A DNA stretch of 64,000 bases from an uncultured Prevotellaceae bacterium (GTDB lineage Bacteria; Bacteroidota; Bacteroidia; Bacteroidales; Bacteroidaceae): assembly GCA_902779455.1 (NCBI GenBank), contig CACZBS010000015.1, forward strand, positions 26,700 to 90,699, in the 5' to 3' direction. Of this stretch, positions 6,324 to 62,521 are shown piece by piece. The notes below the pieces were generated by a model that did not search any database, was not told the DNA's origin, and saw only the letters and a list, made by a program, of their open reading frames with translations. Position 1 is the stretch's first letter. Every line of letters begins with the position of its first letter. The position numbers and the translations under genes are program-made.

Positions 6324-6412
6324 GATCCCGAAATCCCGGAATCTCAAAATCCCGAAATCTCGATATAACGATATAACGAAATAACGAAAATAACGAAATC
6401 CCGAAAAAAGAA
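6324..6412 (+). repeat. Tandem 8-mer array (ATCCCGAA/ATAACGAA)
   Basis: About 10 degenerate 8-nt units between the kinase and fprA genes. Confidence 0.8.
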
Positions 6413-11278: not shown

Positions 11279-11357
11279 CCATCACGCCGTGACGCCATGC
11301 CGTCACGGCGTGATTTCATGTCGTCACGTCGAGACGCCATGCCGTCACGACGTGACG
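11279..11357. repeat. 21-nt tandem array with internal palindrome GTCACG-N-CGTGAC (4 units)
   Basis: Consensus unit ccgtcacgacgtgacgccatg; lies between convergent genes; a second copy is at 44905. Confidence 0.85.
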
Positions 11358-16132: not shown

Positions 16133-18508
16133 CTAATTCTTAATCAGTTTCATGGCTTCCTCGTAGCTGAGGTCCTTAGCGCGTTCGTGCATGGCCTTCG
16201 GCAGACGGTAGTTCTTGCCGTCGTAGCAGAGGTAGGGACCGAAGCGACCGTTGAGCACCTCGAGCTTGGGGTCCTCGTCGAAGGTCTTCAGATGACGCTG
16301 GGCGTCGGCCTTGCGCTTCTCGTCGATGAGTTTCACGGCCTCGGCGATGGTGATGGTCAGCGGGTCGGCACCCTTGGGCAGCGAGGTGTAGACGCCCTTG
16401 TGGAGCACGTAGGGTCCGAAGCGGCCGGTGCCGATGTTGACGGGCTGTCCCTCGTATTCGCCGAGCATGCGTGGCAGCCGGAAGAGCTCGAGGGCCTGCT
16501 CCATGGTGATGGTCTCGATGCTGAGCTCTTTGGGCATGTGGGCAAACTGGGGCTTGTCCTTGTCGTCGGCCGAGCCGATCTGTACGACGGGTCCGAAGCG
16601 TCCGATCTTGACGAAGACGGGCTTGCCCGACTTGGGGTCGATGCCCAGCTGTCGCTCGCCGGCTTTGTGCTCGGAGCGCTGGTTGAGGGTCTTCTCGACG
16701 GAGGGCTCGAAGTCGTGATAGAAGTCCTTGATCATGGTGTTCCACTGCTCCTTGCCCTCGGCAATCAGGTCGAAGTCCTGCTCGACGCGGGCCGTGAAGT
16801 TGTAGTCCATGATGGTGGGGAAGTGCTTCATGAGGAAGTCGTTGACGACGGTGCCCACGTCGGTGGGGATGAGCTTGCCCTTGTCTGAGCCGGTGGTCTC
16901 GGTGCGGGTCTTCTGGGTGATCTGCTTGCCCTTGAGCAGGAGCACGTTGTACTTGTGCTCTTCGCCTTTCTTGTCGCCCTTGACGACGTATTCGCGCTGC
17001 TGGATGGTCGAGATGGTGGGGGCATAGGTCGACGGGCGGCCGATGCCGAGCTCCTCGAGTTTATGGACGAGCGAGGCCTCAGAGTAGCGCTGCGGTCCGA
17101 CGCTCGAGCGCTCCAGGGCGCTGATCTCGCGGCGGATGAGCTCCTGTCCCTCGTGGAGCGGCGGCAGCACGTGGGCAAACTCGTCGGTGTTCTCGTCGTC
17201 GTCGTCCTGCGACTCGCGATATACTTTCAGGAATCCGTCGAACTTGACGACCTCGCCGGTGGCGACGAACTGAGAGTTGAGAGTTGAGAGTTGAGAGGTA
17301 TGATTAGTTACGTTGGTGCTGGCCTGAGAGTTATCATACCTCTCAGTTCCCAGTTCTCCGTTCTCAATTCTTATCGTGACCGTCGTCTTCTCAATCTCGG
17401 CGTCGGCCATCTGCGAGGCGGCCGTGCGCTTCCAGATGAGGTCGTAGAGGCGGCGCTCCTGCACCGTGCCCTCGATCGTGGTCTGGTCCATATAGGTGGG
17501 GCGGATGGCCTCGTGGGCCTCCTGGGCACCCTTCGACGAGGTGTGATACTGTCGCACCTTCGAATAGTCGCCGCCGTAGAGCTCGGTGATCTTATCCTTA
17601 GCCGAGTTGATGGCCAGGCTGGAGAGGTTGACCGAGTCCGTACGCATGTAGGTGATGCGTCCGCTCTCGTAGAGGTGCTGGGCGACCATCATCGTCTGGC
17701 TGACGGTGAAGCCGAGCTTGCGGGCGGCCTCCTGCTGCAGCGTCGAGGTGGTGAAGGGCGGTGCGGGCACGCGCTTCTGCGGCTTCTTCTGGATCTGCTC
17801 GATGGTGAACGTGGCGTCCTTGCAGAGCTCGAGGAACTGCTCGGCCTCCTGCTGCGACTTGAAGCGCTGGCCGAGCGTGGCCTTCACTTCCGACTGCGAC
17901 CCGTCGGCATTCACGACGCCGAAGGTGGCGCTGACGCTGTAGTAGGTCTCGCTCTTGAAGGCCTGCAGTTCGCGCTCGCGCTCAACGATGAGGCGCACGG
18001 CGACGCTCTGCACGCGTCCGGCCGAGAGGGCGGGCTTCACCTTGCGCCAGAGCACGGGCGACAGCTTGAAGCCGACGAGTCGGTCGAGCACGCGGCGTGC
18101 CTGCTGCGCGTTGACCAGGTTCATGTCGAGCGTGCGCGGATGCTCGATGGCGGCGAGGATGGCGGGTTTGGTGATTTCATGGAACACGATGCGCTTCGTC
18201 TTCTGCTCGTCGAGCCCGAGCACCTCGCACAGGTGCCATGAGATGGCCTCTCCCTCGCGGTCCTCATCGCTTGCGAGCCACACCTGCGAGGCTTTCTTGG
18301 CTTGCGACTTGAGCTCGCTGACCAGCTTTTTCTTCTCGTCGGGAATCTCGTATTCGGGTTCCATCGTGTTGTCGTCGATGCTGAGTTCGCGCTTCTTCAG
18401 GTCACGGATGTGACCATAGCTTGACATCACTTTGTAGTCATCGCCCAAAAACTTCTCAATGGTCTTGGCTTTTGCCGGCGACTCTACTATGACAAGGTTC
18501 TTTTGCAT
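16133..18508 (-). CDS. topA: DNA topoisomerase I
   Basis: VIVESPAK, SDEDREGE, SAGRVQS, ITYMRTDS (catalytic Tyr) and Bacteroidota C-terminal GRFGPY repeats. Confidence 0.98.
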   Translation of the reverse strand: MQKNLVIVESPAKAKTIEKFLGDDYKVMSSYGHIRDLKKRELSIDDNTMEPEYEIPDEKKKLVSELKSQAKKASQVWLASDEDREGEAISWHLCEVLGLDEQKTKRIVFHEITKPAILAAIEHPRTLDMNLVNAQQARRVLDRLVGFKLSPVLWRKVKPALSAGRVQSVAVRLIVERERELQAFKSETYYSVSATFGVVNADGSQSEVKATLGQRFKSQQEAEQFLELCKDATFTIEQIQKKPQKRVPAPPFTTSTLQQEAARKLGFTVSQTMMVAQHLYESGRITYMRTDSVNLSSLAINSAKDKITELYGGDYSKVRQYHTSSKGAQEAHEAIRPTYMDQTTIEGTVQERRLYDLIWKRTAASQMADAEIEKTTVTIRIENGELGTERYDNSQASTNVTNHTSQLSTLNSQFVATGEVVKFDGFLKVYRESQDDDDENTDEFAHVLPPLHEGQELIRREISALERSSVGPQRYSEASLVHKLEELGIGRPSTYAPTISTIQQREYVVKGDKKGEEHKYNVLLLKGKQITQKTRTETTGSDKGKLIPTDVGTVVNDFLMKHFPTIMDYNFTARVEQDFDLIAEGKEQWNTMIKDFYHDFEPSVEKTLNQRSEHKAGERQLGIDPKSGKPVFVKIGRFGPVVQIGSADDKDKPQFAHMPKELSIETITMEQALELFRLPRMLGEYEGQPVNIGTGRFGPYVLHKGVYTSLPKGADPLTITIAEAVKLIDEKRKADAQRHLKTFDEDPKLEVLNGRFGPYLCYDGKNYRLPKAMHERAKDLSYEEAMKLIKN
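17271..17372 (-). repeat. Palindromic 7-mer-armed element in frame within topA
   Basis: Stem gagaggtatgat/atcatacctctc with (ctctcaa)3; encodes IENGELGTERYDNSQ...TSQLSTLNSQ; AT-richer than the flanking codons. Confidence 0.8.
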
Positions 18509-19198: not shown

Positions 19199-19384
19199 AG
19201 AGACCCCACCCCCAACCCCTCCCCTTGAAGGGAGGGGAGCAGCTGCGCCGTCATCCCCGTCGGGCAGTGCGCCAGCCACCCCCCTCCTTTGGAGGGGTCG
19301 GGGGAGGCCTCTCCCCTCCTTCGGAGGGGTCGGGGGAGGCTTTCTCCCCTCCCTTCAAGGGGAGGGGTTGGGGGTGGGGTCTCT
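19199..19384. repeat. MITE/REP-like element copy A (~42-bp terminal inverted repeats)
   Basis: agagaccccacccccaacccctccccttgaagggaggggag ... ctcccctcccttcaaggggaggggttgggggtggggtctct. Confidence 0.9.
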
Positions 19385-35139: not shown

Positions 35140-35493
35140 ATGAAGCGCCGTGAAACGATAGGCCGCCGATGGAGGGCATGGATGCTGCTGGCAGTGTTCG
35201 TGCCGATGCTCTTGATGTCGGCTCTCCACGTGCACGGGGGCTCCGGCGCCTGGCAGGACGCGTGCTCCGAGTGCGTCGACCACCATTGTGGCGGTCATCT
35301 GGGGCAGTATGCTGGCGGAGCGATCCACGACTGCGTGCTCTGCCAGTTTCTGACGCTGACCTTTGTTCCGGCCGTCGTCGCCACGGCTATTATATATTAT
35401 AATGTGGTGCGGCTTGGGCGAGTGGAGCTCGCCGGGCGCATCGTCCTTAGGAACCAGGGTGTCGTCGGTCTGAGGGCACCGCCGGTGCAGTGA
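35140..35493 (+). CDS. DUF2946-like Cys/His-rich leader protein with C-terminal RAPP motif
   Basis: Hydrophobic N-terminal segment; HVH, CSEC, HHCGGH and HDCVLC; ends GLRAPPVQ*. TAATTTTG promoter motif just upstream. Confidence 0.8.
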   Translation: MKRRETIGRRWRAWMLLAVFVPMLLMSALHVHGGSGAWQDACSECVDHHCGGHLGQYAGGAIHDCVLCQFLTLTFVPAVVATAIIYYNVVRLGRVELAGRIVLRNQGVVGLRAPPVQ

Positions 35494-35615
35494 ATAGTTA
35501 ATAGTTTATAGTTATGATTAGACTTGCTGCTTGTTTAAGCCTGAGTCTTTTCATCGACTAATCATAGCTATTCACTATTAACTATTCACTGTTCACTATT
35601 CACTATAAACTATTT
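35491..35615. repeat. 31-bp hairpin with TATTCAC-type 7-mer arms
   Basis: 35491-35521 pairs with 35558-35588 (3 mismatches); further 7-mers extend to about 35615. Confidence 0.85.
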
Positions 35616-37997: not shown

Positions 37998-38172
37998 AAA
38001 CCGCGAATTTATTTTAGAACCACGAATTAAACGAATTGAACGAATTTTTTAGAACCACGAATTAAGCGAATTAAGCGATTTTTTAAAACAACGTATTGAA
38101 CGAATTAAACGAATTGGCAGCGGATTACTTGTGCGCAGCCAATTCGTTTAATTCGTTTAATTCGTGGTTAAG
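37998..38172. repeat. 9-mer (ACGAATTAA) array forming an inverted repeat
   Basis: ccacgaattaaacgaattgaacgaat occurs repeatedly, then the inverted arm caattcgtttaattcgtttaattcgtgg; lies between convergent genes. Confidence 0.85.
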
Positions 38173-39699: not shown

Positions 39700-39790
39700 T
39701 TATTCGTTATCTCGTTATAACGTTATTTCGTTATAACGGCATTCCGGCATTTCGTTATAACGTTATATCGTTATTCCGACATTTCTTTAT
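39700..39790 (-). repeat. Tandem 8-mer array (ATAACGAA family)
   Basis: Reverse complement reads ataacgatataacgttataacgaaatgccgga...; same family as 6324-6412. Confidence 0.75.
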
Positions 39791-39805
39791 TCCGCCGTTC
39801 CGGGC

Positions 39806-44904: not shown

Positions 44905-44988
44905 CCGTCACGGCGTGACCGCATGCCGTCACGACGTGACGCCATGAAACCACGTCGTGACGGCATGCCGTCACGTCGTGACGGAATG
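44905..44988. repeat. 21-nt tandem array, second copy (4 units)
   Basis: ccgtcacgNcgtgacgNcatg units as at 11279. An unrelated 21-nt-period array (actttgcataatcgcgcat) precedes it at about 44796-44860. Confidence 0.85.
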
Positions 44989-45075
44989 AAGAGGCGGCAG
45001 AAAAAACAGTCAAATATTTTGCCGTTTCGGATTTTTTGTCTAATTTTGCAGAATGTAAATATTAATAAGGTATAT

Positions 45076-51047: not shown

Positions 51048-51206
51048 CGGGTTCTGATTCTCAGTCGACCTCCTCGTCGGCCTCATAGCCACCCATCTCG
51101 CGGATGGCGTTCTTCAGTCCCTGCAATAGTTCGCATTATTTCTATAAAAATAATTGGACTCGTGCAGTCTTTTACATGATTATCGGACATAATAAATAGA
51201 GACATC

Positions 51207-51617
51207 ATGTTTTCGATGGAAGTTATGCGGCTGATAGAACGATGCAGACAGGGGGACGCGGATGCCCTCGGAGAACTGTACAAAGCATACGCCCAACGGA
51301 TGAGGGGCGTATGCCGTCGGTATGTCAGTGACGAACAAACCATCAGCGATGTGCTGCATGACTCCTTCGTGATCATCTTCACCTCCTTTGACAAACTGCG
51401 CGATGACAGGAAGGCTGAGGCATGGATGATGTCGATAACGAGAAATGTGGCCTCGAAATATAAAGACCATCTGGCAAAGATGACCTTTGTGCCGCTGGAG
51501 GAAGCGGAGCATTTGCAGATGTCGAAGCCAGAGAGCGAAGTGAGAGGCGTGCCGTTGGAGGATGTAATGCAGCTCGTAGACGGTCTGCCGGAAGGCTACG
51601 GACAGGTATTCCAATAA
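51207..51617 (+). pseudogene. ECF sigma factor truncated at the start of region 4
   Basis: Region 2 LYKAY...DVLHDSFVIIF...AWMMSITRN is present, but the ORF stops at LPEGYGQVFQ* without the region-4 HTH. Confidence 0.85.
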
Positions 51618-51622
51618 ATCAC

Positions 51623-51661
51623 AAATGTCGCTTTGTCGTTTTGTCGTATTTCTCGCGCTTC
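51623..51661 (+). repeat. Left direct repeat (TGTCGTTT x3 + CTCGCGCTTC)
   Basis: aaatgtcgctttgtcgttttgtcgtatttctcgcgcttc matches 59796-59836. Confidence 0.8.
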
Positions 51662-51742
51662 TGCATGAAACACTGCGTAAACGAAAGATTCGCCCAGCTG
51701 TCACAGCGGAGCGAATCTATCAAAGAAGCAAAAACCCCTGAT

Positions 51743-51853
51743 TCATCCGATGGCGTTTACACAGGCCGTGATGCCCAGCGCCGTCGCGATGCCCGACAGG
51801 ATGTAGAGCAGCGCATTGACGACGAACTTCCAAAAAGCCTTATTCTTCCACAT
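51743..51853 (-). CDS. Smalltalk-family small membrane peptide (36 aa)
   Basis: Below the ORF-track cutoff. MWKNKAFWKFVVNALLYILSGIATALGITACVNAIG*, directly downstream of the HU-like gene, the usual context for this family. Confidence 0.8.
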   Translation of the reverse strand: MWKNKAFWKFVVNALLYILSGIATALGITACVNAIG

Positions 51854-51929
51854 AGCAGTAAGATTGAAGATTAAACATTGAAGATTAGAAAGAGCCCCGC
51901 CAGCTCAGATGCAGGAGGGGCCCCATTGT

Positions 51930-52442
51930 TCAGTCGCCGGGGTTTTCGACGACGGGCTCGTTGTCGTTGCCGCCGCTCGAGGTGCCGCCACCGCCCGTGG
52001 AGCCGCCATCGCTTTCGCCGCCGGTGTACGTCATACCCAGCGAGGCGATGTCCTTGAGCGCCACCTTCTTGCGCAGCGAGACGCTGTCGAGCATAGCGCG
52101 GGAGCTCGAGTCGGGCAGGAAGCGCAGGCGCACGTTCTTGATCTGGTCCATCGTGGCCTCGTCGGCCGACTCGGCGGCGGTGCTGCTCACGGAGAGGTAG
52201 AACGTGCCGAGGCCGTCAATCTTCACCTTCTTCGACTCCATCAGCTGCTCGATGAGACAGTTGCGGAAAGCCTTCAGCACGCCCTGGACGATGTCCTCGG
52301 TGTAGGGCGAGCCGTGATCGACGATGTGCTTGCCGAGATCCTCGAGACTCAGCGTAGCGATGTGAACAGCCCGACGGTAGAACTTGCCTTTAGTCTTTTC
52401 GTTGTTCACAGTGTTCTGATACAAACGGGTCAAAAGTGCCAT
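51930..52442 (-). CDS. HU-related DNA-binding protein (Bacteroidota HU_rel type)
   Basis: KGKFYRR, IVQGVLKAF...LMESKKVKIDGLGTF and a Gly-rich acidic tail. Confidence 0.9.
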   Translation of the reverse strand: MALLTRLYQNTVNNEKTKGKFYRRAVHIATLSLEDLGKHIVDHGSPYTEDIVQGVLKAFRNCLIEQLMESKKVKIDGLGTFYLSVSSTAAESADEATMDQIKNVRLRFLPDSSSRAMLDSVSLRKKVALKDIASLGMTYTGGESDGGSTGGGGTSSGGNDNEPVVENPGD

Positions 52443-52556
52443 AGTTGTAAGAATTTTTAGTTAAACATGTTATCCTGAAAGGGCAATCCCTTTACACCTG
52501 CAAAGTTACGAAATCGGAGGCCCCGATGCAAACGAGGCCCCCGGTTTTAACGTTTT

Positions 52557-52997
52557 TTAGCGGAGTATCTTTCGGATGACGCCAACTTTACGCTTACCTG
52601 GACTCCAAGGATCGTTGGCGTAGTGGAGCCATACGCTTTCCGAGCCGATGTCGCCCTCAATGTAGAGCTCGTCGAAGTCGGGACACAGGCGGGCCAGCGT
52701 GGCCATCTTGCGGCAGGCGTCGTCAAGGTTGCAACACTTGATGTCGACGGCGCAGCCTTGCAGGTGATAACTCGTCGGGGAGCCGCCGACGGCTTTATTA
52801 ACCTCCTTCGACCTATAGCCGCTGTTGATGACAATAGGCTCACCTCCCAGCGCGAAGCGGAGCTTCTCGAGGGTTTCTGCTATCTCAACGAGATTATTTA
52901 TGACTACGGCTGGTGGCGCGTTATTGACGTTCTTAACGTTCGTGACACAAAGCTCCTTCAGACTGAAATGTTCAGTCAATTTTAAATGCTTAATCAT
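52557..52997 (-). CDS. Peptidase M15A (D-Ala-D-Ala carboxypeptidase/endolysin-like)
   Basis: LTEHFSLKEL, INSGYRSKEVNKAVGGSPTSYHLQGCAVDI and WLH motifs. Confidence 0.92.
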   Translation of the reverse strand: MIKHLKLTEHFSLKELCVTNVKNVNNAPPAVVINNLVEIAETLEKLRFALGGEPIVINSGYRSKEVNKAVGGSPTSYHLQGCAVDIKCCNLDDACRKMATLARLCPDFDELYIEGDIGSESVWLHYANDPWSPGKRKVGVIRKILR

Positions 52998-55570
52998 AGT
53001 GTGAGTACTTTTTTGATTTTCTTATACTTACGGTCTTTGGGGGCGGTGATGATTCCGTCACTGACCCATCGTCTGCAGGTTTGTCCGGCATTGTTCAGGG
53101 TTTTCAATCCCAGTATCTGCATGACATCCTCGGTCGTGAACTCCATCGGCAGCTGATTGTAGGCTTCGCGCACTTTCGTCGAGCGTCGCCGAGGTTCGAA
53201 ATCCTGCGTCTGAGCGTCGAGAGCATCCATGACCATTTGCCCAAAAAAGTGCATCTGCGACATGAGACAGAAGTCGCCGATGAGCCGGGCAAACTCGAGG
53301 TCGCTGTCGTCGCAGACTAGGTCGTCGCCCTTGATGGCGGCATCGAGCTGTCGCATGACCATGCGCACCAGCGCATAGCGCATCATGATGATCGGGATGC
53401 GCTTGCGGAAGTAGTCGAGGCATCGGTCTTGTTCCAGTCGGGCCTGCTCGGTCAGTTCGGCCTCGTATTTGTAGCAGTAGTCCACAAGCCGCTCAACGCC
53501 CTTGCCGCTGAGCTCGCCGCAGACTTGCTCGAGCCGCAAGCCGAGCGACCGCAGGTAGCACTCGCGATCGTGGTCGCGGACGACGCGGCGGCGGTCAATC
53601 ATGGCGTAGTCGTTGCTAGGCATGGGGAAGATGCAGAGGCGGGTGACGAGACCATCAAGCACCGTCGAAGGTCGGATCTTGCGGCGCAGGGCGTCGGGCG
53701 TGCCCGTGATGACCTGATTCCAATTCACCTGGATAATGCCATTTACCGACGCGTCGTTCGCATAGTCCACGCCGGCCAGCTCATCTTGAAAACTTTTGCA
53801 CTCGAGGTCGAGTTTGCCTGCCCAAGAGCCCGTCTGCGCCCGCAGGGCCGTGGCCAGCTCGGGCTCAAAAGTGTAGCAATGGAGATGGAGCGTTTGCCCG
53901 TCGGCGTCCTGATGCTGGTCGTCGATCGCATCCGTCAGACGGCGGTAGAGCATCGCGTTACTGATGGTGGACGGCACGTAGCGGATGACGGGGTGCTTCT
54001 GCTCGGGCGCCTCGCTGCGGGCGTTCTTGCTGGAGGCTGCGCGTTTCTTCATGTCCTCCTTGTACTGGCGTTCCCACTCGCGGCCGACGTTGTCGGCGGC
54101 TCGCATGGGCGCCATCAGAAGTTTGTCCATCTGCACGGCAAACGACTTACCGGAGGCGGCGTCACCGATGATGTAGACGAGGTACGAGAGCCGATAATCC
54201 TTGCCGTCGAAGTGAGGCCACCAGCAGCGGGTCAGGTACGTGCCCATCATCGCGCCGGCAGCTAAGACGCCAGCGAGCTTGTGCTGTGGCGGGAGATCGG
54301 CCACAGCTTCTCTGAAACCCGGGGCTTCGACCAGAAGAGGCTCCAGTCGCTTGGTCCAGGCGTCGTAGTCGATCGCAGCCACTCGAGCAGTTTCAGCGTC
54401 TGACGGCGCGTCATCATGCTGTACACCAGCAAGCTGTAGGACACGTTGCAGTCGTTTGGGGATAGACCTGTAGAGGGGTTTAAGACAAGCGTCACTTGCA
54501 ATTCGGTTGAGCTCGGACTGCCCTCGTTCGTTGACAATTTCTTGACCCACCGGCAGCTGCGCAAGGACCCGCGACAGTAGACCCGGGTCGTCATCGGCGA
54601 TATAGCGCAGGTCGCAAGCCAGCTGGAACAAGCTGCGATGACGGTCTCCTGCCTTTGGCATGCCGCCCTGAACGCTTTTGAACCATTCTTCTGCAATTCG
54701 CTCATAGCTGACATCGTGGTAGGTTAGAGTTTCATCAGGTTCAGGCTGTCCAGCCAGCAGCGCAGTTCCGTCTCGGCGTTGTACAGGGTTGTTGCCATTA
54801 TGTCCACCAGCAGTCTGAGAAGATCGACTATCACACTTAACGCTGCGACGATCACTCGCAAAAAGGTCACCAATGGCAGCACTATGCCCGCCGCGATAGA
54901 TTTCATTGTATTTTTGAGCAAATTCTTCATTGTGGTAATTAAATATGTCTCTGTCAATAAAAACTAAATCATCGAATCCGGGGCAGAACGACAGGCGCGA
55001 GGCGTCTTTGCACGACTCGTCCATCGTCATGCCGAGTTGAGAGGCCAGCCAGTGCTGGTTGTCGGCGATATTGCCGACCGCGGGGTCGGCCTTACCCACG
55101 AGGCGCAGTCCGAAGCCGGAGCTCGTCACGTGGATGAGCATCAGGCGCAGCTCGTCGGCACGGACCTTGATGGCCTTAGCCGTCTCCTTGACGTCTCCCT
55201 CGAGGTGGTCGAGGTCGAGCATATAAAGGCCGTTGAGCTGTGTGGCCGACTGCTTGCGCCATGCCCCGAGAATGCCAGTCTTCGACTTGGTGTCGTCGAA
55301 CGTGGCTTGGAAGATGTAGCAGGGCAGCTGGCGTTTCAGGCGGTCGGCCTCCTTGATGCAGCGCTTGCGCTCTGCCTCGAGGTCGGCGTTCATTGGCTCC
55401 GCGGGGTCGGGATTGGCCGCGATGAGCGCAGCAGCATCAGCGGCCTTTCGGCGCCACTCGCGGATTTCGCGGATGCGGCGGTTGACGCCGTCGTCAATGA
55501 GCAGCTGCTCAAAGAGACGGCTGGTTACTACTTGCGTAGGAGTGAAGAAATTGGATTGATAGCAAAACAT
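52994..55570 (-). CDS. BT4734/VirE-N-type primase fused to a DUF3987-like NTPase/helicase domain
   Basis: KRQLP, LYMLDLDHL, HVTSSGFGLR and CKDASRLSF (VirE_N/BT4734-type AEP); GDRHRSLFQLACDL (PriCT-like); Walker A IGDAASGKS; winged-helix-like tail. Confidence 0.82.
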   Translation of the reverse strand: MFCYQSNFFTPTQVVTSRLFEQLLIDDGVNRRIREIREWRRKAADAAALIAANPDPAEPMNADLEAERKRCIKEADRLKRQLPCYIFQATFDDTKSKTGILGAWRKQSATQLNGLYMLDLDHLEGDVKETAKAIKVRADELRLMLIHVTSSGFGLRLVGKADPAVGNIADNQHWLASQLGMTMDESCKDASRLSFCPGFDDLVFIDRDIFNYHNEEFAQKYNEIYRGGHSAAIGDLFASDRRSVKCDSRSSQTAGGHNGNNPVQRRDGTALLAGQPEPDETLTYHDVSYERIAEEWFKSVQGGMPKAGDRHRSLFQLACDLRYIADDDPGLLSRVLAQLPVGQEIVNERGQSELNRIASDACLKPLYRSIPKRLQRVLQLAGVQHDDAPSDAETARVAAIDYDAWTKRLEPLLVEAPGFREAVADLPPQHKLAGVLAAGAMMGTYLTRCWWPHFDGKDYRLSYLVYIIGDAASGKSFAVQMDKLLMAPMRAADNVGREWERQYKEDMKKRAASSKNARSEAPEQKHPVIRYVPSTISNAMLYRRLTDAIDDQHQDADGQTLHLHCYTFEPELATALRAQTGSWAGKLDLECKSFQDELAGVDYANDASVNGIIQVNWNQVITGTPDALRRKIRPSTVLDGLVTRLCIFPMPSNDYAMIDRRRVVRDHDRECYLRSLGLRLEQVCGELSGKGVERLVDYCYKYEAELTEQARLEQDRCLDYFRKRIPIIMMRYALVRMVMRQLDAAIKGDDLVCDDSDLEFARLIGDFCLMSQMHFFGQMVMDALDAQTQDFEPRRRSTKVREAYNQLPMEFTTEDVMQILGLKTLNNAGQTCRRWVSDGIITAPKDRKYKKIKKVLTL
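54724..54930 (-). CDS. Putative nested 68-aa membrane protein in the +1 frame of the primase linker
   Basis: MKNLLKNTMKSIAAGIVLPLVTFLRVIVAALSVIVDLLRLLVDIMATTLYNAETELRCWLDSLNLMKL*. Codons are host-like (ctg, tac, aac, gcc) in this frame while the primase frame becomes T3-rich. Confidence 0.55.
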   Translation of the reverse strand: MKNLLKNTMKSIAAGIVLPLVTFLRVIVAALSVIVDLLRLLVDIMATTLYNAETELRCWLDSLNLMKL

Positions 55571-56022
55571 TGATTAATCTCCTGCATTATTTGCATCATT
55601 CGTTTTTGATAGTTCGGATAGACAGTGATGTCGATTAAAAAGTTGACACCGATGACTTTCTGCGTCTTGTTAAGACGGACATCGACGTCTTGCTTGTGCA
55701 GAAGCACCGCTCCGACGGGCTTGCGGGGCTCCCGTGTCGCGAGCACAGCGGCGCATCGTTCCAACGATTGCTGCATTTCGGCGTAGGGATCGGGCGCGTC
55801 GGCATCGCAGACGAGGTGGGCCACGATCTTCCGGTCCTTCTTGCCGGTGGTGCGGTAGACCTTCGACGCACCGGATTTCTTGATGAGCTCCTGCATGGGC
55901 TCACCGGCCTGTTGCGGTCGGAACTCCATCGTGTCGTCCTCAGCGACCGACATGGTGCCGCGGATTTTGCGAGGCCACTTCTCTTCGGGAGTGGCCTGCG
56001 CGGATTTCACTTGCTCTTCCAT
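55528..56022 (-). CDS. Hypothetical protein upstream of the primase
   Basis: 164 aa, host-like GC3, overlaps both neighbouring genes as in an operon. Confidence 0.75.
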   Translation of the reverse strand: MEEQVKSAQATPEEKWPRKIRGTMSVAEDDTMEFRPQQAGEPMQELIKKSGASKVYRTTGKKDRKIVAHLVCDADAPDPYAEMQQSLERCAAVLATREPRKPVGAVLLHKQDVDVRLNKTQKVIGVNFLIDITVYPNYQKRMMQIMQEINQCFAINPISSLLRK

Positions 56023-56303
56023 ATCGGTGCAATGCGGTCAACGTAAACGATGGTATCGTAGCGCTTCTCGCCTGCCTGTGTTTCCCATTCGCGGGCCTGC
56101 GCAGACAGCTCTACGCGCACATAGTCGCCGACGGCATAGTTAGGAGCCCGGCGGGCGCGGTCGCCCGTCAGGAGGGCATTGACGGAGTTCAGTCCGTCGG
56201 TCAGTTTGACGACGCGCTCGGCGAACGTCTGCGGCTGCCCGTTTCGGTCGGTGTACTGCCGCTCATTGCACGGGCCGACCATTTCTACAAATGCTTGTTT
56301 CAT
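56007..56303 (-). CDS. DUF3127-like small OB-fold (SSB-like) protein
   Basis: RQYTDRNG...ERVVKL...VGDYVRVELSAQAREW...RY pattern; promoter motif TACCTTTG near 56347-56354. Confidence 0.6.
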   Translation of the reverse strand: MKQAFVEMVGPCNERQYTDRNGQPQTFAERVVKLTDGLNSVNALLTGDRARRAPNYAVGDYVRVELSAQAREWETQAGEKRYDTIVYVDRIAPIWKSK

Positions 56304-56430
56304 ATTCCAGAGTTTTATTGTTTATACTTGTTGGTTCGAACCGTCGGCAAAGGTACGGACATTGCGGCAAAAAAAAAATGCCGTTGCAGCCTCCGTAACT
56401 GCACAGCATTTAACACTCTGGAATATGATT

Positions 56431-56862
56431 TTATAAGATTCTCGCTCGCAATATATCGCTAAACTCTGAATAGAAGCCAGCATTCAGCGCCTTTTGCATA
56501 TCTGCCCTCATATTGCGGCGGCCCCAAAACATCTCGAAGGGCTGCCAACGCCGCTCTGGAGGCAGTTTCAGCAAATGGCCTATATGGTCGGCCAGCATCG
56601 CTACACGTGCCCGAGACAGCTCCTGCGGCTGATTTTGTTCGTCGAGCCATCCGGCGGCGCGGGCTTGCGCGAAGATTGCTTCAGCCTGCTTCGTAGCAAG
56701 CGGACTGTCAGCGGGCAATTCTTTTGTGTGGCAGACGATGGAGTCGGCTCGAGAGATTTGTATACGCTCGTCGGGGGTATTGTAAACATTCACTTGCTCT
56801 ACTGCGCCGAAATTCTGTCCGATTGAACTGTTATTGTATTGATTTACTTTAACGCCCTGCAT
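56431..56862 (-). CDS. Hypothetical protein
   Basis: AGWLDEQNQP...LA..I...L...W.PFE.FW pattern; start reassigned to ATG 56862 to reduce the overlap. Confidence 0.65.
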   Translation of the reverse strand: MQGVKVNQYNNSSIGQNFGAVEQVNVYNTPDERIQISRADSIVCHTKELPADSPLATKQAEAIFAQARAAGWLDEQNQPQELSRARVAMLADHIGHLLKLPPERRWQPFEMFWGRRNMRADMQKALNAGFYSEFSDILRARIL

Positions 56863-57148
56863 ATAGATCACGTGATTTGATTGTTTCAGCGGCCGCAATG
56901 CTGGTGCCTACGGGCGCCTCAAAGTAATTGTTTACGTTGGTTGTCGTCTTACCAGCTGCCTGAGACAGCTGAGCCAAAGGCACGTGAGCATCATGGCACG
57001 TTGCGGTGAGTTCCTTGATGATCTGGGCAGCCTCCTGCAGGTCACGCTCCAGTCTGACTTTCTCAGCCCTGAGCACCTGCATCTCATCAGCCAGGGCCAT
57101 CCTGGCCAGTTCCCTCAGCTCCTCCACTGAGTTGATAGTAATCTGCAT
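56849..57148 (-). CDS. Hypothetical coiled-coil protein (99 aa)
   Basis: Heptad-rich LRAEKVRLERDLQEAAQIIKEL; AGGAGG 7 nt before the ATG. Confidence 0.75.
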   Translation of the reverse strand: MQITINSVEELRELARMALADEMQVLRAEKVRLERDLQEAAQIIKELTATCHDAHVPLAQLSQAAGKTTTNVNNYFEAPVGTSIAAAETIKSRDLYAGR

Positions 57149-57336
57149 TGGTTATCCTCCTTTTCTTTTTTGTTTTAATAAACATAATGATTTCAATTTT
57201 GTTTGGTGAAAAGACCGCTATCCTCACGGACAGCGGTCATTGGTAAAAAAACTAAATTTTAATTGTACAAATTACCTGGCGGCGACCCTCACGGGCGGCA
57301 CTCTGAGGCCAGTTTTCTTATTATCAGCAATGCTGA

Positions 57337-57495
57337 TTATTCTTCTTCGTCGTCCCAGAAGCCGCCGCGGTCACGGCTCAGCAACTTGCTCTCGTCGTCG
57401 GCTGTGCCGCTATATTTATCGATCGAGCCAGCCATCAGCGTCTGGGGCATCACGTTCAGCACCTCGGTGCTGGGAATCTGATATGTCTTTTTCAT
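57337..57495 (-). CDS. 52-aa MKKTYxxP-type small peptide
   Basis: Below the ORF-track cutoff. MKKTYQIPSTEVLNVMPQTLMAGSIDKYSGTADDESKLLSRDRGGFWDDEEE*; AGGAGG 8 nt upstream. Confidence 0.75.
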   Translation of the reverse strand: MKKTYQIPSTEVLNVMPQTLMAGSIDKYSGTADDESKLLSRDRGGFWDDEEE

Positions 57496-57516
57496 TGTTT
57501 TATCCTCCTATTTTTA

Positions 57517-59295
57517 TTACTTAATGACTTTCTTACCATTCACAATATAGAGGCCCTTCACAGGCTGAGCCACGCGACGGCCCTGCAGGTCGAAGACCTC
57601 ATTGTTCATTGTACATTTTTCATTGTACATTGTTTCGATGCCTGTCATCTCAGCGTCGCCGCCGAAGCTCAGGTACGAACGCGAGCCCGTCTTCGTGGTA
57701 GGAAGGTAGACGCGGCCAACAGCCAGAGGAGCTGCGCCTGTCCACTCGTAGAAGCCGACTCCCTCGTTACCGTTGTAGAGCACGTAGCTACCAGCGGGAG
57801 CGGGCTCGTTAGCGGTGACAACCTTCAGCAGGTTGCCTTCGATGTTGCTCGTCGTTCCTTCATAGTCAACGATGGGGAAGTTGAACGTGTCAGCATTTTT
57901 CAGTACAACAGGAGCACCTGCGGGAATAGTAGTCGTCACGTCAGCCGTCGTCACAGACTTCTCATTGATGGCGGTGACAATCATGGCCTGCACACCGTTA
58001 GGCACTTTTACTTCGTACTGAGGAACGAACGTTGCCATACCAGCGCTTGTAACTTCCTTGCTGATGCAGCCAGTAATCGTAATAGGACCTACACCTACGT
58101 TCGAGCCTTTATGGAATACCAAACGTACAAATCTATCAGTTTTAGCAAAAAATTTGGTTGTTGTTAAAGGCAGGATATCATTTTGCTCGCCGCTGATTTC
58201 GAGCGTTTCTAAAGTCGTAAAAGTCTCGCCATCAGCAGAGGCATTTACATCGATATACGATGTATTGGCTCCACCAATCATCTTAACGCCAATAGTAACA
58301 ATGCCTGGCTGCTCATTCGTCTTTATCTGAATGTAGTCACCATCACTGTCGAACTTGATATTGTAGGGTGAATGATCGACGGCATAATTAGATCCGAGTC
58401 CGTATGTTGATATGCCCAATCCAACAAGATCGGATTTATTACCGCCCTCCCATTCGAACGGCAGTGGGGCATAGTCTGGTACAAAAGCGGCTTGGGTGAT
58501 TGTGACGAGATCCGAGTATACCTCTTTGGCGTCGTTGTCTAAAGCGTATACCTTCAAGTAAGCCGTGCGGGCTTCTCCGTCATTGGCTTCGACAAGGTAG
58601 TTTACGTTGTTGTCGTCGTCAATTTCGGCAGTAATCCAGTCGTAGGTTTCTACCGTCGTGCCGTCAGAGGCGAAGAAAGCTACATTGGCAGCATCGTCGG
58701 AAATGTTATCATAGGTAACAGTAATGACACCTTCTTCGCCTTCGCAAGGCACGCTCACCTGAGTGCTACCAACAGTAACGGCCGGTTCTGTAGGAGCTGC
58801 TGTCGTGTATGTTACTTTTACACTTTTAACATAAAGGGCCTTTTGGGCTTGTGAAGGTTTCGTCACTGTTACAACGATTTCTCCAGAGGCAGAACCTACA
58901 AATGTGTAGTCTGTTGCAGTGGTAGTCAAAGATTGGGCAGCCCCGCCAAAAGCAGCCCCGCCAACCGTAATGTCTGCAGTTGCGGTAACCCCAGAAGCAG
59001 TGCTGGCATTCACCACGATTTGAGTAATTGTTCCCGAGATGCCGGAAGTACTAAGTTTGATGTATTGAACTGCAGCTTTACCTGTACCATAATGAATGCC
59101 TCTCTCGCTGTCGAAAGTAGATTCGCTTCCATCAGAAGTCACGGTCCATTTTACATTGTCGTCAGCAGTTCCGCTGCCGCCGCAAGCTGCTGTAAAATTT
59201 AACGTGCTGACTGCAGCATTGACTTTTAACAAATTCCCGCTTCCTATGATAGCCAGGAGCAGGAGCAATGTTTTGATGTGTAGATTTTTTAACAT
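57517..59295 (-). CDS. T9SS-secreted protein with BACON-like domain, lower GC
   Basis: Signal peptide; WITAEID...YLVEANDGEARTAYL (BACON-like); CTD TGIETM...EVFDLQGRRVAQPVKGLYIVNGKKVIK. Confidence 0.85.
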   Translation of the reverse strand: MLKNLHIKTLLLLLAIIGSGNLLKVNAAVSTLNFTAACGGSGTADDNVKWTVTSDGSESTFDSERGIHYGTGKAAVQYIKLSTSGISGTITQIVVNASTASGVTATADITVGGAAFGGAAQSLTTTATDYTFVGSASGEIVVTVTKPSQAQKALYVKSVKVTYTTAAPTEPAVTVGSTQVSVPCEGEEGVITVTYDNISDDAANVAFFASDGTTVETYDWITAEIDDDNNVNYLVEANDGEARTAYLKVYALDNDAKEVYSDLVTITQAAFVPDYAPLPFEWEGGNKSDLVGLGISTYGLGSNYAVDHSPYNIKFDSDGDYIQIKTNEQPGIVTIGVKMIGGANTSYIDVNASADGETFTTLETLEISGEQNDILPLTTTKFFAKTDRFVRLVFHKGSNVGVGPITITGCISKEVTSAGMATFVPQYEVKVPNGVQAMIVTAINEKSVTTADVTTTIPAGAPVVLKNADTFNFPIVDYEGTTSNIEGNLLKVVTANEPAPAGSYVLYNGNEGVGFYEWTGAAPLAVGRVYLPTTKTGSRSYLSFGGDAEMTGIETMYNEKCTMNNEVFDLQGRRVAQPVKGLYIVNGKKVIK

Positions 59296-59513
59296 AATGA
59301 TTAAATTATAAATTAATGGTTTGTATGTTCCTCATCTGTAGGCAGCGCAAAGGCATGCACGGGTGGGGTTGCGTCACGCGGGGCGCAAATCGGGTGCAAA
59401 GTTACAAAGACTTTCGGATATAACCAAGACATTGCCCAAAAATATTGGGGGGCCGCGTCTGTTAAAAGTTGTGTATTTTTAGTCCCGTTTGCGGCCCTCC
59501 CGGGAAAATATCG

Positions 59514-59521
59514 TATCTTTG
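59514..59521 (+). promoter_or_regulatory. -7 promoter element with no intact downstream ORF
   Basis: TATCTTTG, with a TTTG at 59488-59491; divergent from the minus-strand motif near 59397. Confidence 0.55.
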
Positions 59522-59524
59522 CAG

Positions 59525-59635
59525 CCGTGTGCCACAGAGGTTGCGATTCACTAGCACGCTCGCCCCGCCCTTCGGGGCGCATGCATCCGCGCAGGCGTCG
59601 CCTTTACAGTATACACCTGCGCGGACTTTCAACAA
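59525..59635 (+). ncRNA. Candidate structured RNA or leader
   Basis: Hairpins cgcccc/ggggcg and tccgcgcagg/cctgcgcgga immediately after the orphan promoter. Confidence 0.25.
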
Positions 59636-59693
59636 ATAAGCGCTAAAATCTCGCACTTCCATCATTTTGCCGATTTTATTGCGGAAAACGTGA

Positions 59694-59836
59694 AAATACG
59701 ACAATACGACAATACGACATTTTGTATAAAACGGACGTTGAATATAATATTATATAATAATATTATAAAATAATTCAATCTATGTCTATAATTATAAATG
59801 TCGTTTTGTCGTTTTGTCGTTTTCGTCTCGCGCTTC
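59694..59836. repeat. Inverted 8-mer triplets flanking an AT-rich core (includes the right direct repeat)
   Basis: (aatacgac)3 at 59694-59722, about 70 nt of nearly pure AT, then (tgtcgttt)3 + ctcgcgcttc at 59796-59836. Confidence 0.85.
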
Positions 59837-59839
59837 GTC

Positions 59840-60024
59840 GAGCCAATCAGGTCTATTCGCAAGGATATTACAATGAATTGGCCACTTTCGTGGAAGCCGC
59901 CCGACATCATGATCGCCACGTCATTTCGACTCTCGAAACAATAAAGGACACTTATCGGTTGATGGACAATCTGCAGTCTGGCTGGATCACCTTCCGGCGT
60001 GGCGAGGCCGAGCCGGACTGCTGA
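59840..60024 (+). pseudogene. Possible 3' gene remnant (resembles a Gfo/Idh/MocA oxidoreductase C-terminus)
   Basis: NQVYSQGYYNELATFVEAA...STLETIKDTYRLMDNL reads like a protein C-terminus, with no plausible start. The family assignment is from memory only. Confidence 0.3.
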
Positions 60025-60214
60025 AAGGACAGTCACGTCAAGTTTCGCTTGTACTAATTATCTGATAATGAGTGTCACTTCGTGACAGAAATCTAGCAAA
60101 TCTTTTCAAATCTTCCAAAGCAGATTTGTTTGATTTGTAGGCGACTAAAAATCAGGGCTTTCGCATGCTTGCGAAAGTTGAGCAGTCACGTCTCCTCTGC
60201 TGTCGGCCAAAGTC

Positions 60215-62263
60215 TTAACGGCTGAATTTGGCACTGTGGCGACGGCCCTGCCACTGCCAGGCGACGACATAGAGTCCGCGTGGCAGTGAGGCGACGCTGG
60301 CGCCGTCCTGAGCACGGAAGCTGAGGACGGGGCGTCCGGCGGCGTCGTAGACCGTGGCGTCAAAGGTGAGGCGGCTGAGGTCGTCGGTGCCGTAGTGGAG
60401 TCGCAGGCCCTGCGGGTCGTAGGCCAAGGCGTAGTCGACGTCGGGCTGTCTGGGCGCGTCGATGGCGTCAGGCGCGGTGAGGCTGTCGACGACGACGAGC
60501 GTCCACAGGCGGTTGTTGCTCGTGGCGTTGCGGCTGTCGTTGGTGTAGCTCAGGATGGTGGTGCCGTCGTCGGCGCGTCCGCCGGTGAGGTTGGCGGTGT
60601 GGTCGCTCTGCCGGTTGTTCAGGTTGATGCGTCCGCCCGACTGCATGACGAGATGCCATTGCTGGGCGCGGTCGGCCGTATCGGCGGGGGCGACGCGGAG
60701 CTGGGTGCTCAGGTTGGTGGTGGCGGTGGAAGGCCCCTCGGTGGGGTCGGTCAGCGCCTGTCCGCTCAGTCGGTTGACGAGGTGGTGGTAGCCGTTGCTG
60801 AGGGTGATGACCTGCCACTGCTGGCTGTGGCTGTCGTCGCGCGCATGGTTGGCGACGACGTGGCCCTCCGCGTCGGTGTCGAGGCGTGTGGCGGTGCCGG
60901 CATTAGCGATGGCGTAGTAGTAGTCGGGGCGGGTGGTGACGTCGGGCTCGATGCCGATGAGGTCGTCCGTGTCGGGGTGGTCGGGGTGTCGCCGGGCGAA
61001 GGCGTCCAGCAGGGCCGGGATGCGTATGTGGACGAAGCGCCGGAGGTCGTCGACATATTCGTCGTAGGTGCTGTAGATGACGACCTCGCGCAGGGTGCGC
61101 TGGCGGATGTTCCATCGCTCGTAGTTCAGCTGTTGCGAGGCGTCGATGAGGGCTGCGAGACTGTCGATCCTGCTGATGAGCTTTTGTTCGAGGCGGTCTT
61201 CGCAGAGCGTCTTGTAGTGGTCGAAGACGAGTCGCTGGAACCACTCGTCCTGCCACATGCGGCGGATCCACTGCTCCAGCCCGTTGTTGGTGAAGCCGAT
61301 GTCGGCCATGAGCTCACGCTGTGGGGTGTGTCCGCTGAGGCGGTTGTCGTTGTCGAAGGCGATGTCGTAGTCCCACATGGGTCCGAAGTGCAGGCGGTCG
61401 TCGTCGCGGTCCTTATAGAAGTACATGCTCCAGAGATAGTCGGGGTTGGCGGTGATCTCGCTGGCGAGATACCAGCTGACGAGCGAGAGCGTGTCGACGT
61501 AGTGGCGATAGCTGAGGGCCGACTCGAAGGTGTTGTTGAACAGACGGCTCTCGAACGTGTTGACGACGTTGCGGATATACGTGAACTGCCTTGTCGTGAT
61601 CTCGTCCTCCGCAGGATAGTGGATGGTCATGGGCACGCCCTTGAGGCTCGTGCGCCATCCCGTCTTGCCGTCGACGTAGTCGCGGAAGCCGTCGGCCTCG
61701 ACGAGGTAGCCGCCGCTGATGTTGCTCTCCGGCGTGAGGGGCTCGTCCTGCTCGGCGATGTCGACGCGGTGCTTGCGCACGTCAATCTGGTCGCTCACCT
61801 GATAGTTGCCGCGATACTGCCCGTTGAGGGTCAGGTCGACGAACATGGCGCCGGGGGTGAACGTCTGGCCGCAGAGGTCGCCGATGTAGCTGGCCAGGGC
61901 GTTGCGCAGGAGCGACTTGTCGCCGTGGTTGGCCAGCAGGGTCCACTTCTTGGCATTGGCGCGCTCAGGGCCCATGAAGCGCTCCTTCTGCGGGAACTTG
62001 ATGCGGTAGGGCTTCTTCTCCATTTTCCAGGTCGAGTTGCCGCGTCCACGGATGAGGACAGAGTCGTAGTAGGCCTCGCGGCTGCCCTCGACGATCCACA
62101 GTCGTGCCGGCACCTCGGTGGTCTTGCTGGCGGGGTCTTGTCCGCTGAAGGTCTCGATGTAGATGTGGGGCAGGTTGGTCAGCTGTCTGCGGCTGCCGTC
62201 CTGTGCCATGATGACAACGGCGGCAGCGATGAAGGCAATCAGTGTGAGCGCAAGGCGTTTCAT
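60215..62263 (-). CDS. CotH-kinase-family protein with ricin-like lectin domain and CTD
   Basis: RGRGNSTW, KKPYRIK, KKWTLLAN, NGQYRGNY and GPMWDYDIAF motifs; QQW repeats; C-terminal YDAAGR...RGLYVV. Confidence 0.9.
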   Translation of the reverse strand: MKRLALTLIAFIAAAVVIMAQDGSRRQLTNLPHIYIETFSGQDPASKTTEVPARLWIVEGSREAYYDSVLIRGRGNSTWKMEKKPYRIKFPQKERFMGPERANAKKWTLLANHGDKSLLRNALASYIGDLCGQTFTPGAMFVDLTLNGQYRGNYQVSDQIDVRKHRVDIAEQDEPLTPESNISGGYLVEADGFRDYVDGKTGWRTSLKGVPMTIHYPAEDEITTRQFTYIRNVVNTFESRLFNNTFESALSYRHYVDTLSLVSWYLASEITANPDYLWSMYFYKDRDDDRLHFGPMWDYDIAFDNDNRLSGHTPQRELMADIGFTNNGLEQWIRRMWQDEWFQRLVFDHYKTLCEDRLEQKLISRIDSLAALIDASQQLNYERWNIRQRTLREVVIYSTYDEYVDDLRRFVHIRIPALLDAFARRHPDHPDTDDLIGIEPDVTTRPDYYYAIANAGTATRLDTDAEGHVVANHARDDSHSQQWQVITLSNGYHHLVNRLSGQALTDPTEGPSTATTNLSTQLRVAPADTADRAQQWHLVMQSGGRINLNNRQSDHTANLTGGRADDGTTILSYTNDSRNATSNNRLWTLVVVDSLTAPDAIDAPRQPDVDYALAYDPQGLRLHYGTDDLSRLTFDATVYDAAGRPVLSFRAQDGASVASLPRGLYVVAWQWQGRRHSAKFSR

Positions 62264-62394
62264 GTTCGGGCGGTGATGAAGTCAGATGTCTTTTCAGTGT
62301 GCAAATTTATAAAATAAAGGTCAAAACGACGAGAGAATTTAGAAAAAAGTGTTACCTTTGCAGCTGATTTTTAAGTAACCACTAATATGATAAA

Positions 62395-62521
62395 GTTACA
62401 GACCCCACCCCCGACCCCTCCCCTTGAAGGGAGGGGAGCGGCTACCGCCCTGACCGCCGCATGGGACTCCGCAGGCACTCCCCTCCCTTCAAGGGGAGGG
62501 GTCGGGGGTGGGGTCTGTAAC
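62395..62521. repeat. MITE/REP-like element copy E
   Basis: gttacagaccccacccccgacccctccccttgaagggaggggag ... ggggtctgtaac, between promoter TACCTTTG (62353-62360) and ATG 62556. Confidence 0.9.

Follow-up and report, generated by a model that had tools for sequence, protein, structure and literature searches.

We analysed 64,000 nt of contig CACZBS010000015.1 (assembly GCA_902779455.1, positions 26,700 to 90,699 of the forward strand), which belongs to an uncultured Prevotellaceae bacterium. This whole stretch is referred to below as the window, and coordinates are counted from its first nucleotide unless a related locus, designated by an L number, is named. Between positions 51613 and 59836 the window includes an island of low GC content, 8.2 kb long and located in a rumen Prevotella-like chromosome, whose nine genes are all encoded on the minus strand. 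GC content is 0.57 in the island core and 0.49 in a cargo segment, vs 0.61–0.63 in the flanks and about 59% in the whole window. The relatives of the window, as well as the public sequencing runs that contain it, correspond to rumen or bovine-gut Prevotellaceae. The list of co-oriented genes compiled in a first-pass annotation of this DNA was recovered entire, every listed gene being present on the minus strand. A feature absent from that annotation is central here: three arrays, each made up of three 8-bp units ACGACAAA (module strand), bound the island. Read along the module strand, the order is L array, AT-rich spacer, inverted R array, optional cargo, OB-fold protein, p164 and an 858-aa protein, followed downstream by an optional wall hydrolase, an HU-HIG protein and a membrane peptide of 36–40 aa, with the End array in last position. 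The arrays and the replication genes are the following:

51613–51672, minus strand: End terminus, with array A (51623–51651, 3 × 8 bp ACGACAAA) and the inner motif TTTCTCGCGCTTC, directly after the smalltalk gene
52994–55570, minus strand: putative replication protein of 858 aa, modelled as an archaeo-eukaryotic primase (AEP), a helical linker, an MCM-like AAA+ helicase and a C-terminal winged helix
55528–56022, minus strand: p164, overlapping the primase start, the universal partner of the primase across the family
56007–56303, minus strand: OB-fold-like protein (SSB/DUF3127-like) of 98 aa, with sub-threshold matches only
56348–56372, minus strand: putative promoter motif of Bacteroidetes type (TTTG ... 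TACCTTTG), before the replication operon and just upstream of the OB-fold gene
59694–59722, plus strand: R array (B), 3 × 8 bp, inverted with respect to L and End, with the inner motif ...TTCCGCAATAAAATCGG
59723–59795: AT-rich spacer (85% AT, about 73 nt) containing a palindrome, a candidate DNA-unwinding element
59796–59823, minus strand: L array (C), followed up to 59836 by 13 nt of an inner motif of the End type; here the island has its outer limit

Comparison of the arrays with one another shows that L and End are direct repeats over 42 nt (51617–51658 vs 59790–59831, 83% identical), and that R and End are inverted repeats over 29 nt (90% identical). The inverted similarity between R and End runs inward through TTTCxCGCGCTTCCGCAATAAA, so that an inverted repeat of about 50 bp encloses the genes, while the further direct copy (L) and the spacer sit outside it. 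The same extended repeat, array and inner motif included, is present in the related loci L001 and L004. The octamer motif occurs six times in the window (0.47 expected), exclusively at the two ends of the island. Short iterons thus adjoin an AT-rich region, which is the arrangement by which an iteron-type replicon is recognised. The L-spacer-R segment folds as a long hairpin (z = −5.5), and the spacer, which is 79% identical to that of L004, scores promoter-like. Across elements, between 0 and 16 nt of the motif that adjoins End are retained beside the L array. The left edge of the island resembles a truncated copy of the right terminus which, speculatively, would be in line with a product somewhat exceeding one unit in length. 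Both junctions between island and flank are covered by assembled contigs in several of four independent metagenome runs, hence the arrangement is not an assembly artefact.

The putative promoter motif at 56348–56372 resembles the Bacteroidetes promoter consensus, and equivalent TAnnTTTG boxes are present in L001 and L004. That the replication operon has such a motif of its own, in the window at a distance of 3.3 kb from L-spacer-R, argues against the latter being simply the operator of the operon.

A word-indexed search returned over 1,100 relatives of the primase protein, and an exhaustive profile search recovered 1,701 clusters (50% identity), of which 518 reached E ≤ 1e-30. All organisms named for these relatives are Prevotella or Prevotellaceae, save for one contig binned as Erysipelotrichaceae, and the element family has so far been obtained only from rumen and gut Prevotellaceae. 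Several metagenome-assembled genomes contain two copies. Two sister elements, 86–87% identical, lie in unrelated genomic contexts, one between a GH67 gene and a FecR/sigma pair and the other between a dockerin protein and another large gene. DNA homology between the window and its sisters is restricted to 51623–56357 and 59671–59825; the 3.3-kb gap between these stretches identifies the cargo gene and the accompanying hypotheticals as a variable insert. The three-array layout is kept in eight elements whose primases are 43–87% identical to that of the window, and each element uses one unit, common to its three arrays:

Window: ACGACAAA
L001: ACATCATT
L004: ACAACAAA
L021: AAGTACAC
L026: AAACTTGC
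L044: AATCAGTC
L045: TTACAAAA
L124: GACTTTTG

Placed in register, 12 of 13 units conform to nnn(A)-CA-(A/T)(A/T), that is, a conserved half and three free positions. The spacers of the related elements measure 75–110 nt and are 78–87% AT. The same three free bases recur in every array of one element and yet differ between elements which are only 14% apart. This points either to co-evolving recognition, as in plasmid incompatibility, or to a copying process that homogenises the arrays; comparison of the closest trio did not separate the two. L026 and L045 contain a fourth array further upstream, giving two repeat-bounded units in tandem. In L026 (155–9412) this array encloses 9 kb of cargo with an HU-HIG gene, WG-repeat proteins, type I methylase and specificity subunits, and an S24 peptidase.

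We scanned 80 further metagenome loci with a simple script that kept one unit per locus. The full three-array pattern was found in one of them (L124), many of the contigs being too short and distant members perhaps truly lacking the pattern, and an AT-rich inverted pair lies upstream in nine. Of 47 loci, 11 have a tandem array that begins no further than 150 bp from the primase stop, about one being expected from the background density of arrays. The 3′-end array hence appears to be family-wide, and the full three-array layout is frequent, having been seen in part of the members. When analysed by tblastn across loci, the universal pair consists of p164 and the primase protein, usually preceded by a small OB-fold gene. 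No integrase was found in the gene tables of L001, L004, L044, L045 and L048, and our literature search retrieved no published description of this architecture. The locus L048, beside rpoB/rpoC, has units of 7 bp (GAGAGTT/GACAGTT), with about 20 copies upstream (8665–8817) and eight at the primase stop (12488–12544); it adjoins Bro-N/ANT and GP88-like genes.

The 858-aa protein models as an AEP primase joined to an MCM-like AAA+ helicase and a winged helix. It matches BT4734-like_N (PF08800) with 41.1 bits, vs a gathering threshold of 22.4; the AEP domain spans residues ~78–226, the Walker A motif (GDAASGKS) residues 469–476 and the winged helix residues ~798–851. In 27 aligned sequences D119, D121 and H122 (AEP motif I) and the Walker A signature GxAASGKS are invariant, as is the block D184...KDASR192 in the motif III region, D184 and D189 included. 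The AlphaFold (AF2) model, with a mean pLDDT of 76, consists of an N-terminal alpha/beta domain, a helical linker with disordered flanking loops and a C-terminal half. When compared by Foldseek, this half aligned best with MCM helicases (best E 8e-5, probability 1.0, 400–520 aligned columns); it matched the SV40 large-T helicase more weakly, and weaker matches of the N-terminal domain were with the LigD polymerase (probability 0.96) and the NrS-1 prim-pol. No DUF3987 or VirE Pfam match was obtained for the helicase half. The last 60 residues are modelled as three helices and a hairpin, a winged-helix-like arrangement. The scaffold of this predicted domain is conserved in twelve elements. Its third helix, which is the putative recognition helix, varies greatly ahead of an invariant Trp/Arg and is the most variable part of an otherwise conserved C-terminus; within window, L001 and L004, only 2–4 residues of this helix differ.

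With regard to its partners, p164 gave no sequence match in Pfam, NCBIfam, PHROG, PADLOC or the PDB; its AF2 model is poor (pLDDT 64), and Foldseek returned nothing below E 0.2. The 98-aa protein scored 22.6 bits with Pfam SSB (threshold 26) and 21.5 with DUF3127 (threshold 27), and its PDB matches to SSB and Ten1 have E ~0.1, a resemblance to OB-folds that is consistent but weak. In a comparison of the three closest elements, each of the six core genes shows purifying selection, with ratios of nonsynonymous to synonymous substitution (dN/dS) of 0.10–0.38 at dS 0.12–0.54; the ratio is 0.10–0.18 for the 98-aa OB-fold-like gene and 0.10–0.38 for the smalltalk gene.

Taking into account the anatomy of the locus, we infer a replication function for the island, and the reading that we favour, with slightly more belief than doubt, is that of an iteron-type replicon integrated in the chromosome, with no integrase of its own, whose cargo varies and whose hydrolase/HU-HIG/peptide block is accessory. 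Its layout recalls the pri-rep-ori module of phage-inducible chromosomal islands (PICI) or the alpha/ori/crr set of phage P4. Two iteron sets facing an AT-rich stretch, along with a fused AEP and helicase, make up the layout expected of an origin served by a self-recognising primase-helicase. The winged helix of the 858-aa protein would bind the 8-bp iterons, made up of the core A-CA-(A/T)(A/T) and three element-specific bases. The two iteron sets pointing into the spacer would load helicase rings head to head and melt it, upon which the AEP domain would prime synthesis and the OB-fold protein would coat the single strands. HU-HIG may bend the origin, and the distal End array would be a further site needed in cis, like crr in phage P4. 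In that phage, octamer iterons are found at two cis sites several kb apart, ori and crr, both of them needed for replication, and by analogy the role of the End array may be similar to that of crr. That the island could replicate locally, as proposed in the first-pass annotation, is strengthened by cognate 8-bp iterons in an origin-like layout and by the modelled combination of primase, MCM-like helicase and winged helix.

Several known systems share parts of this organization. In the P4 alpha protein a single polypeptide unites primase and hexameric helicase with a winged helix at the C-terminus that binds the origin, and ORF904 of plasmid pRN1 likewise joins primase, helicase and C-terminal winged helix (PMC2777425). 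In contrast to the island protein, with which it has no sequence similarity, P4 alpha has a primase of the DnaG/toprim type and an SF3 helicase, and the P4 genome includes an integrase, cos and capsid-size genes. In pRN1-type and AEP-MCM replicases, an AEP prim-pol, a helicase and a winged helix replicate a small mobile replicon (PMC4234260, PMC5862659), and pRN1 has essential cis regions both upstream and downstream of its replication operon (PMC4234260). These elements are, however, plasmids and proviruses of archaea or Firmicutes whose free forms are known, and pRN1 is without recognisable iterons. The BT4734-like AEP has been described as an orphan family with no assigned clade (PMC5862659).

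A number of observations weigh against the favoured reading, and no sign of activity was detected. The data available are assembled contigs of steady-state communities from four bovine-gut metagenomes, from which rare or induced forms would escape. In these four metagenomes the island is not amplified: its contig depth equals that of its two flanks (15.3 vs 16.7/13.5, 9.1 vs 9.2/6.8, 18.1 vs 18.4/14.9 and 11.2 vs 10.7/9.7). Contigs that connect the flanks directly, as after excision, or the two island ends, as in a circle, were not found, and no RNA run was found to contain the region. The increase in read depth and the circular junctions that the first-pass annotation regarded as signs of an active element are therefore both missing from these uninduced samples. 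Fixed synteny without amplification, which it took as evidence to the contrary, leans against current activity as far as steady-state assemblies tell. The identical CotH neighbour is found on 23 contigs from many samples, with the island at the same place wherever the locus is long enough; each sister variant is likewise found in one context only. None of about 120 fetched loci is a circular contig with terminal overlap, no relative was found among 72,556 PLSDB plasmids, and a single weak match was obtained among 50,697 GenBank phages. Within the family, many distant members have the End array alone or the upstream pair alone. Within the protein, AEP motif II reads SGxGLR, with no His at the canonical sxH place, and a segment covarying with the iteron was sought in window, L001 and L004 and gave no clear signal. 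Finally, as determined with Tandem Repeats Finder, the genome has many intergenic structures of 7–9-bp tandem repeats, often as inverted pairs. Such short arrays being common, arrays alone are not diagnostic of the island, and these background arrays may be related to the island phenomenon.

The fixed position in all strain samples and a depth equal to that of the flanks would also suit a domesticated or stranded remnant, that is, the replication module of a former integrative element, whether a mobilizable one of the NBU type (nonreplicating Bacteroides unit), a prophage or a satellite, now immobile without integrase and transfer genes, whose genes have been kept for a host-level role. We consider such an origin unlikely, albeit deserving serious attention. 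It would account for the lack of an integrase or mobilization gene and for the truncated neighbours, the other half of which is missing in three contexts (the sigma gene of the window, a 92-aa fragment in L001 and a C-terminal kinase fragment in L045). Moreover, NBU-type elements are chromosomal elements of the Bacteroidota with a BT4734/VirE-type primase, and in B. thetaiotaomicron the VirE/DUF3987 primase genes adjoin an integrase and MobC/relaxase (table in PMC10434189). The island and its relatives, in contrast, show no integrase, relaxase or oriT, nor a DUF3987/VirE Pfam match, and none of the contexts examined (at least 10) retains a remnant of an integrase. All the genes are under purifying selection, and eight diverged elements hold three intact and homogenised arrays despite full replacement of the unit at 86% identity, whereas a dead origin should decay.

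A phage satellite, or an aid to DNA release or gene transfer, was the example given in the first-pass annotation. In a satellite or a lysis-coupled system of this kind a helper phage or stress would induce replication, M15 and the small peptides would lyse the cell, and the DNA would exit in helper capsids, in vesicles or free. A close parallel is the pri-rep-ori module of PICI and Staphylococcus aureus pathogenicity islands (SaPI), with their own primase/initiator and an origin in which two sets of short iterons flank an AT-rich melting region (PMC6092414). The island resembles it in being chromosomal, with its own primase/initiator, paired iterons around an AT-rich region and accessory cargo. 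An endolysin-like M15 with no evident signal peptide lies between single-helix peptides of 36–38 aa, a wall hydrolase of some family recurs after the primase, and L048 is found beside Bro-N/ANT and GP88-like genes. Nevertheless, the island is without integrase or att site, Stl-like repressor, terS, cos, packaging, interference or capsid-redirecting genes and known helper. It differs furthermore in having an AEP primase fused to an MCM-like helicase, a putative origin placed upstream of the operon and a third array on the downstream side. Matches of the island proteins in PHROG are limited to endolysin, SSB and DNA-binding protein. Only two distant relatives are present in IMG/VR; their neighbours are of methylase and helicase type, and the ORFs scanned on these two contigs included neither a capsid nor a terminase gene. 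Taking also into account that metagenome depth does not rise, that the site is fixed and that the hydrolase/HU/peptide block is missing from many family members, the satellite proposal obtained no support and we regard it as improbable.

Little credence is given as well to a transposon-like element bounded by the R arm and the End terminus, which make up an inverted repeat of about 50 bp and each contain three 8-bp sites in subterminal position. It would move by a route involving its own replication proteins, and L would be the remainder of a tandem or circular junction. The extended R/End repeat of window, L001 and L004, the tandem repeat-bounded units of L026 and L045, and the occurrence of elements in many unrelated contexts are in its favour. 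However, no conserved gene was seen to have a transposase, Cas1 or recombinase fold, each variant occupies one context only, and neither a target-site duplication nor an empty site was recovered. Equally small is the probability that we assign to arrays with a regulatory or structural role (operators, insulators, terminators or HU-HIG-type nucleoid sites) and no origin, the genes serving in repair or defence. The spacer is promoter-like by score, the window holds other palindromes of 7–9-bp repeats as well as solitary arrays, and a role in conflicts with invading DNA has been suggested for the HU-HIG family (PMC5499826). On the other hand, the loops of the background palindromes are short and GC-rich and a distant third copy is missing, whereas the island-type spacer is long, AT-rich and preserved from one element to another. 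The End array runs in a single direction and is unable to fold into a terminator hairpin, L-spacer-R of the window is remote from the operon it should regulate, and the PADLOC defence-system models gave generic AEP-domain matches only.

A bolder reading, which we hold to be doubtful, is that these islands are a new class of (semi-)mobile elements free of integrase and transposase. The terminal arrays would be both origin and ends, and the AEP-MCM replicase would copy the unit in situ or as a product slightly exceeding the unit, with an array at its start and at its end, homogenising the arrays within an element while arrays diverge fast between elements. Hydrolase, HU-HIG and peptides would give cell exit, and the solitary and palindromic arrays of the host would be footprints or targets.

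Few uncharacterised gene sets of gut Bacteroidota are as over-represented as the BT4734/VirE-type primase genes, the expanded HU-HIG family and the smalltalk peptides, and the HU-HIG/hydrolase/smalltalk cluster has no published function. Part of the recurring BT4734/HU-HIG/smalltalk cluster can now be viewed as a replicon-like unit with cognate, fast-diversifying iterons, which suggests for it a concrete and testable mechanism: origin binding, origin firing and incompatibility of co-resident copies. If the origins fire, the islands would be internal chromosomal origins, with a bearing on gene dosage, genome instability (the truncated neighbours) and gene flow in rumen Prevotella, and such an origin might seed replicating vectors for a group in which genetic work is difficult. 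If they never fire, the strict conservation of three homogenised arrays calls for another explanation.

The remaining features of the island are the genes downstream of the primase and the cargo segment:

51743–51853, minus strand: smalltalk, 36 aa, one predicted transmembrane helix (NF033879, 31.5 bits vs 24.7)
51930–52442, minus strand: HU-HIG (PF18291) DNA-binding protein with a glycine-rich tail (70.4 bits vs 26.2)
52557–52997, minus strand: Peptidase_M15_3 (PF08291), a LAS-type peptidoglycan peptidase (66.7 bits vs 23.2)
56358–59670, minus strand: variable cargo segment, 3.3 kb, GC 0.49, absent from the sister elements
56431–56898, minus strand: hypothetical protein of 155 aa; public gene calls have instead an 83-aa open reading frame (ORF) on the opposite strand
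56849–57148, minus strand: hypothetical protein of 99 aa
57337–57495, minus strand: ORF of 52 aa
57517–59295, minus strand: cargo protein of 592 aa, secreted-looking

The best PHROG match of the M15 peptidase is an endolysin (E 3e-28), and it also matches PDB 1LBU (E 1e-6). In L004 the M15 gene (10529–10966) has a dS of ~1.1, vs 0.2–0.5 in the neighbouring genes, which suggests that this gene alone was replaced through recombination. The M15-HU-smalltalk trio is confined to closer relatives when searched by tblastn across loci; the three genes are accessory and lie outside the universal core. An HU-HIG gene also follows the primase in L001, L004, L008, L026, L044, L045, being accompanied by a 40-aa DUF6486 peptide in L045 and L044 and standing alone in L026. 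Elsewhere the position after the primase is occupied by Amidase_2 (L047) or by a protein with the motif RNNNPLNI (L013), which we take to resemble phage P5-type muramidases. A cytoplasmic wall hydrolase and an HU-HIG gene are hence, judging from their predicted families, recurrent companions of the primase whose family changes. The earlier suggestion that the island proteins weaken the cell wall is plausible, a predicted peptidoglycan hydrolase of varying type (M15, Amidase_2, P5-like) following the primase. With the HU-HIG/peptidoglycan-hydrolase/smalltalk clusters of Bacteroidota the island shares the three families, their order and a neighbouring BT4734-type primase; it differs in that, within the island subclade, the linkage to the primase module and the iteron arrays is consistent. 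HU-HIG genes have been stated to be without conserved linkages (PMC5499826), and the pattern found in this family differs.

In the sisters, the cargo position is held by about 250 bp encoding a 37-aa membrane peptide. The 592-aa protein had been considered surface-protein cargo. A signal-peptide-like N-terminus and a C-terminal motif, as recognised by eye, agree with this, but no sorting domain of the type IX secretion system (T9SS) was detected, as no T9SS domain model matched. The coding status of the small ORFs of the segment (two or three) is uncertain. As regards what the island does not carry, the statement that integrase, capsid and conjugation genes are lacking holds for the island and about 10 kb on either side. 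Terminase, relaxase and transposase were likewise not found in the island or its neighbourhood, and Rfam detected no RNA family within the island.

The left flank of the island contains a broken gene:

51207–51617, plus strand: ECF sigma-70 gene truncated to region 2, abutting the End terminus

Homology to intact sigma relatives ends at 51612 and homology to the sister elements begins at 51623. The region-4 half is absent from the whole 64-kb window, as determined by tblastn with an intact homologue. Genes had been described as broken on both flanks; this stands for the left one, where sigma is cut after region 2, whereas no identity could be assigned to the ORFs on the right (59782–60036). 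A clean insertion into the sigma gene was considered, as the right flank resembled region 4 by eye, and was discarded: Pfam gave no support and the C-terminal half is nowhere in the window. In L004 the insertion is intergenic, and no target-site duplication is visible at the island junctions. The empty site was sought with look-ups of the identical CotH neighbour and of sigma homologues, which gave only filled sites or unrelated contexts. Sigma-fragment homologues cut at many different points (79–146 aa) are present in public data. At 60137, between the CotH gene and the island, samples of the same strain differ by an insertion/deletion polymorphism: L028, L029 and L031 include a 95-bp segment (62 bp in one sample) which is absent from the window. 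The immediate flanks (51170–51603 and 59850–60283) are 10–40 times deeper than the island in the four metagenomes, which indicates that the flank sequences are repeated across the community.

Other repeats occur in the window. Palindromes with arms of 7–9-bp tandem repeats, each with its own unit and a short GC-rich loop, are located at 627–760, 17270–17370, 35490–35600 and 38012–38165; such intergenic palindromes are far above chance frequency and may be terminator-like. The solitary intergenic 8-bp arrays at 6325–6406 and 39703–39794 lie 33 kb apart between ordinary-looking genes, are inverted relative to each other and have two units in common, one ATAACGA-type and the other AAATCCCG-type; they might mark the ends of a further segment bounded by arrays, or be footprints. 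At 62393–62521 and again at 19281–19362 the window has a palindromic, GC-rich element about 130 bp long (CCCCTCCCCTTGAAGGGAGGGG...), which is also present in L004 (3845–3899) and L001 (8370–8480). It is 90–94% identical between the window and an unrelated contig and has the look of a repetitive extragenic palindrome (REP) or of a miniature inverted-repeat transposable element (MITE). Tandem 21-bp repeats (TCACGACGTGACGCCATGCCG-like) occupy several intergenic sites, at 11282–11357 and 44905–44990 in the window and at 8060–8140 in the unrelated contig L001.

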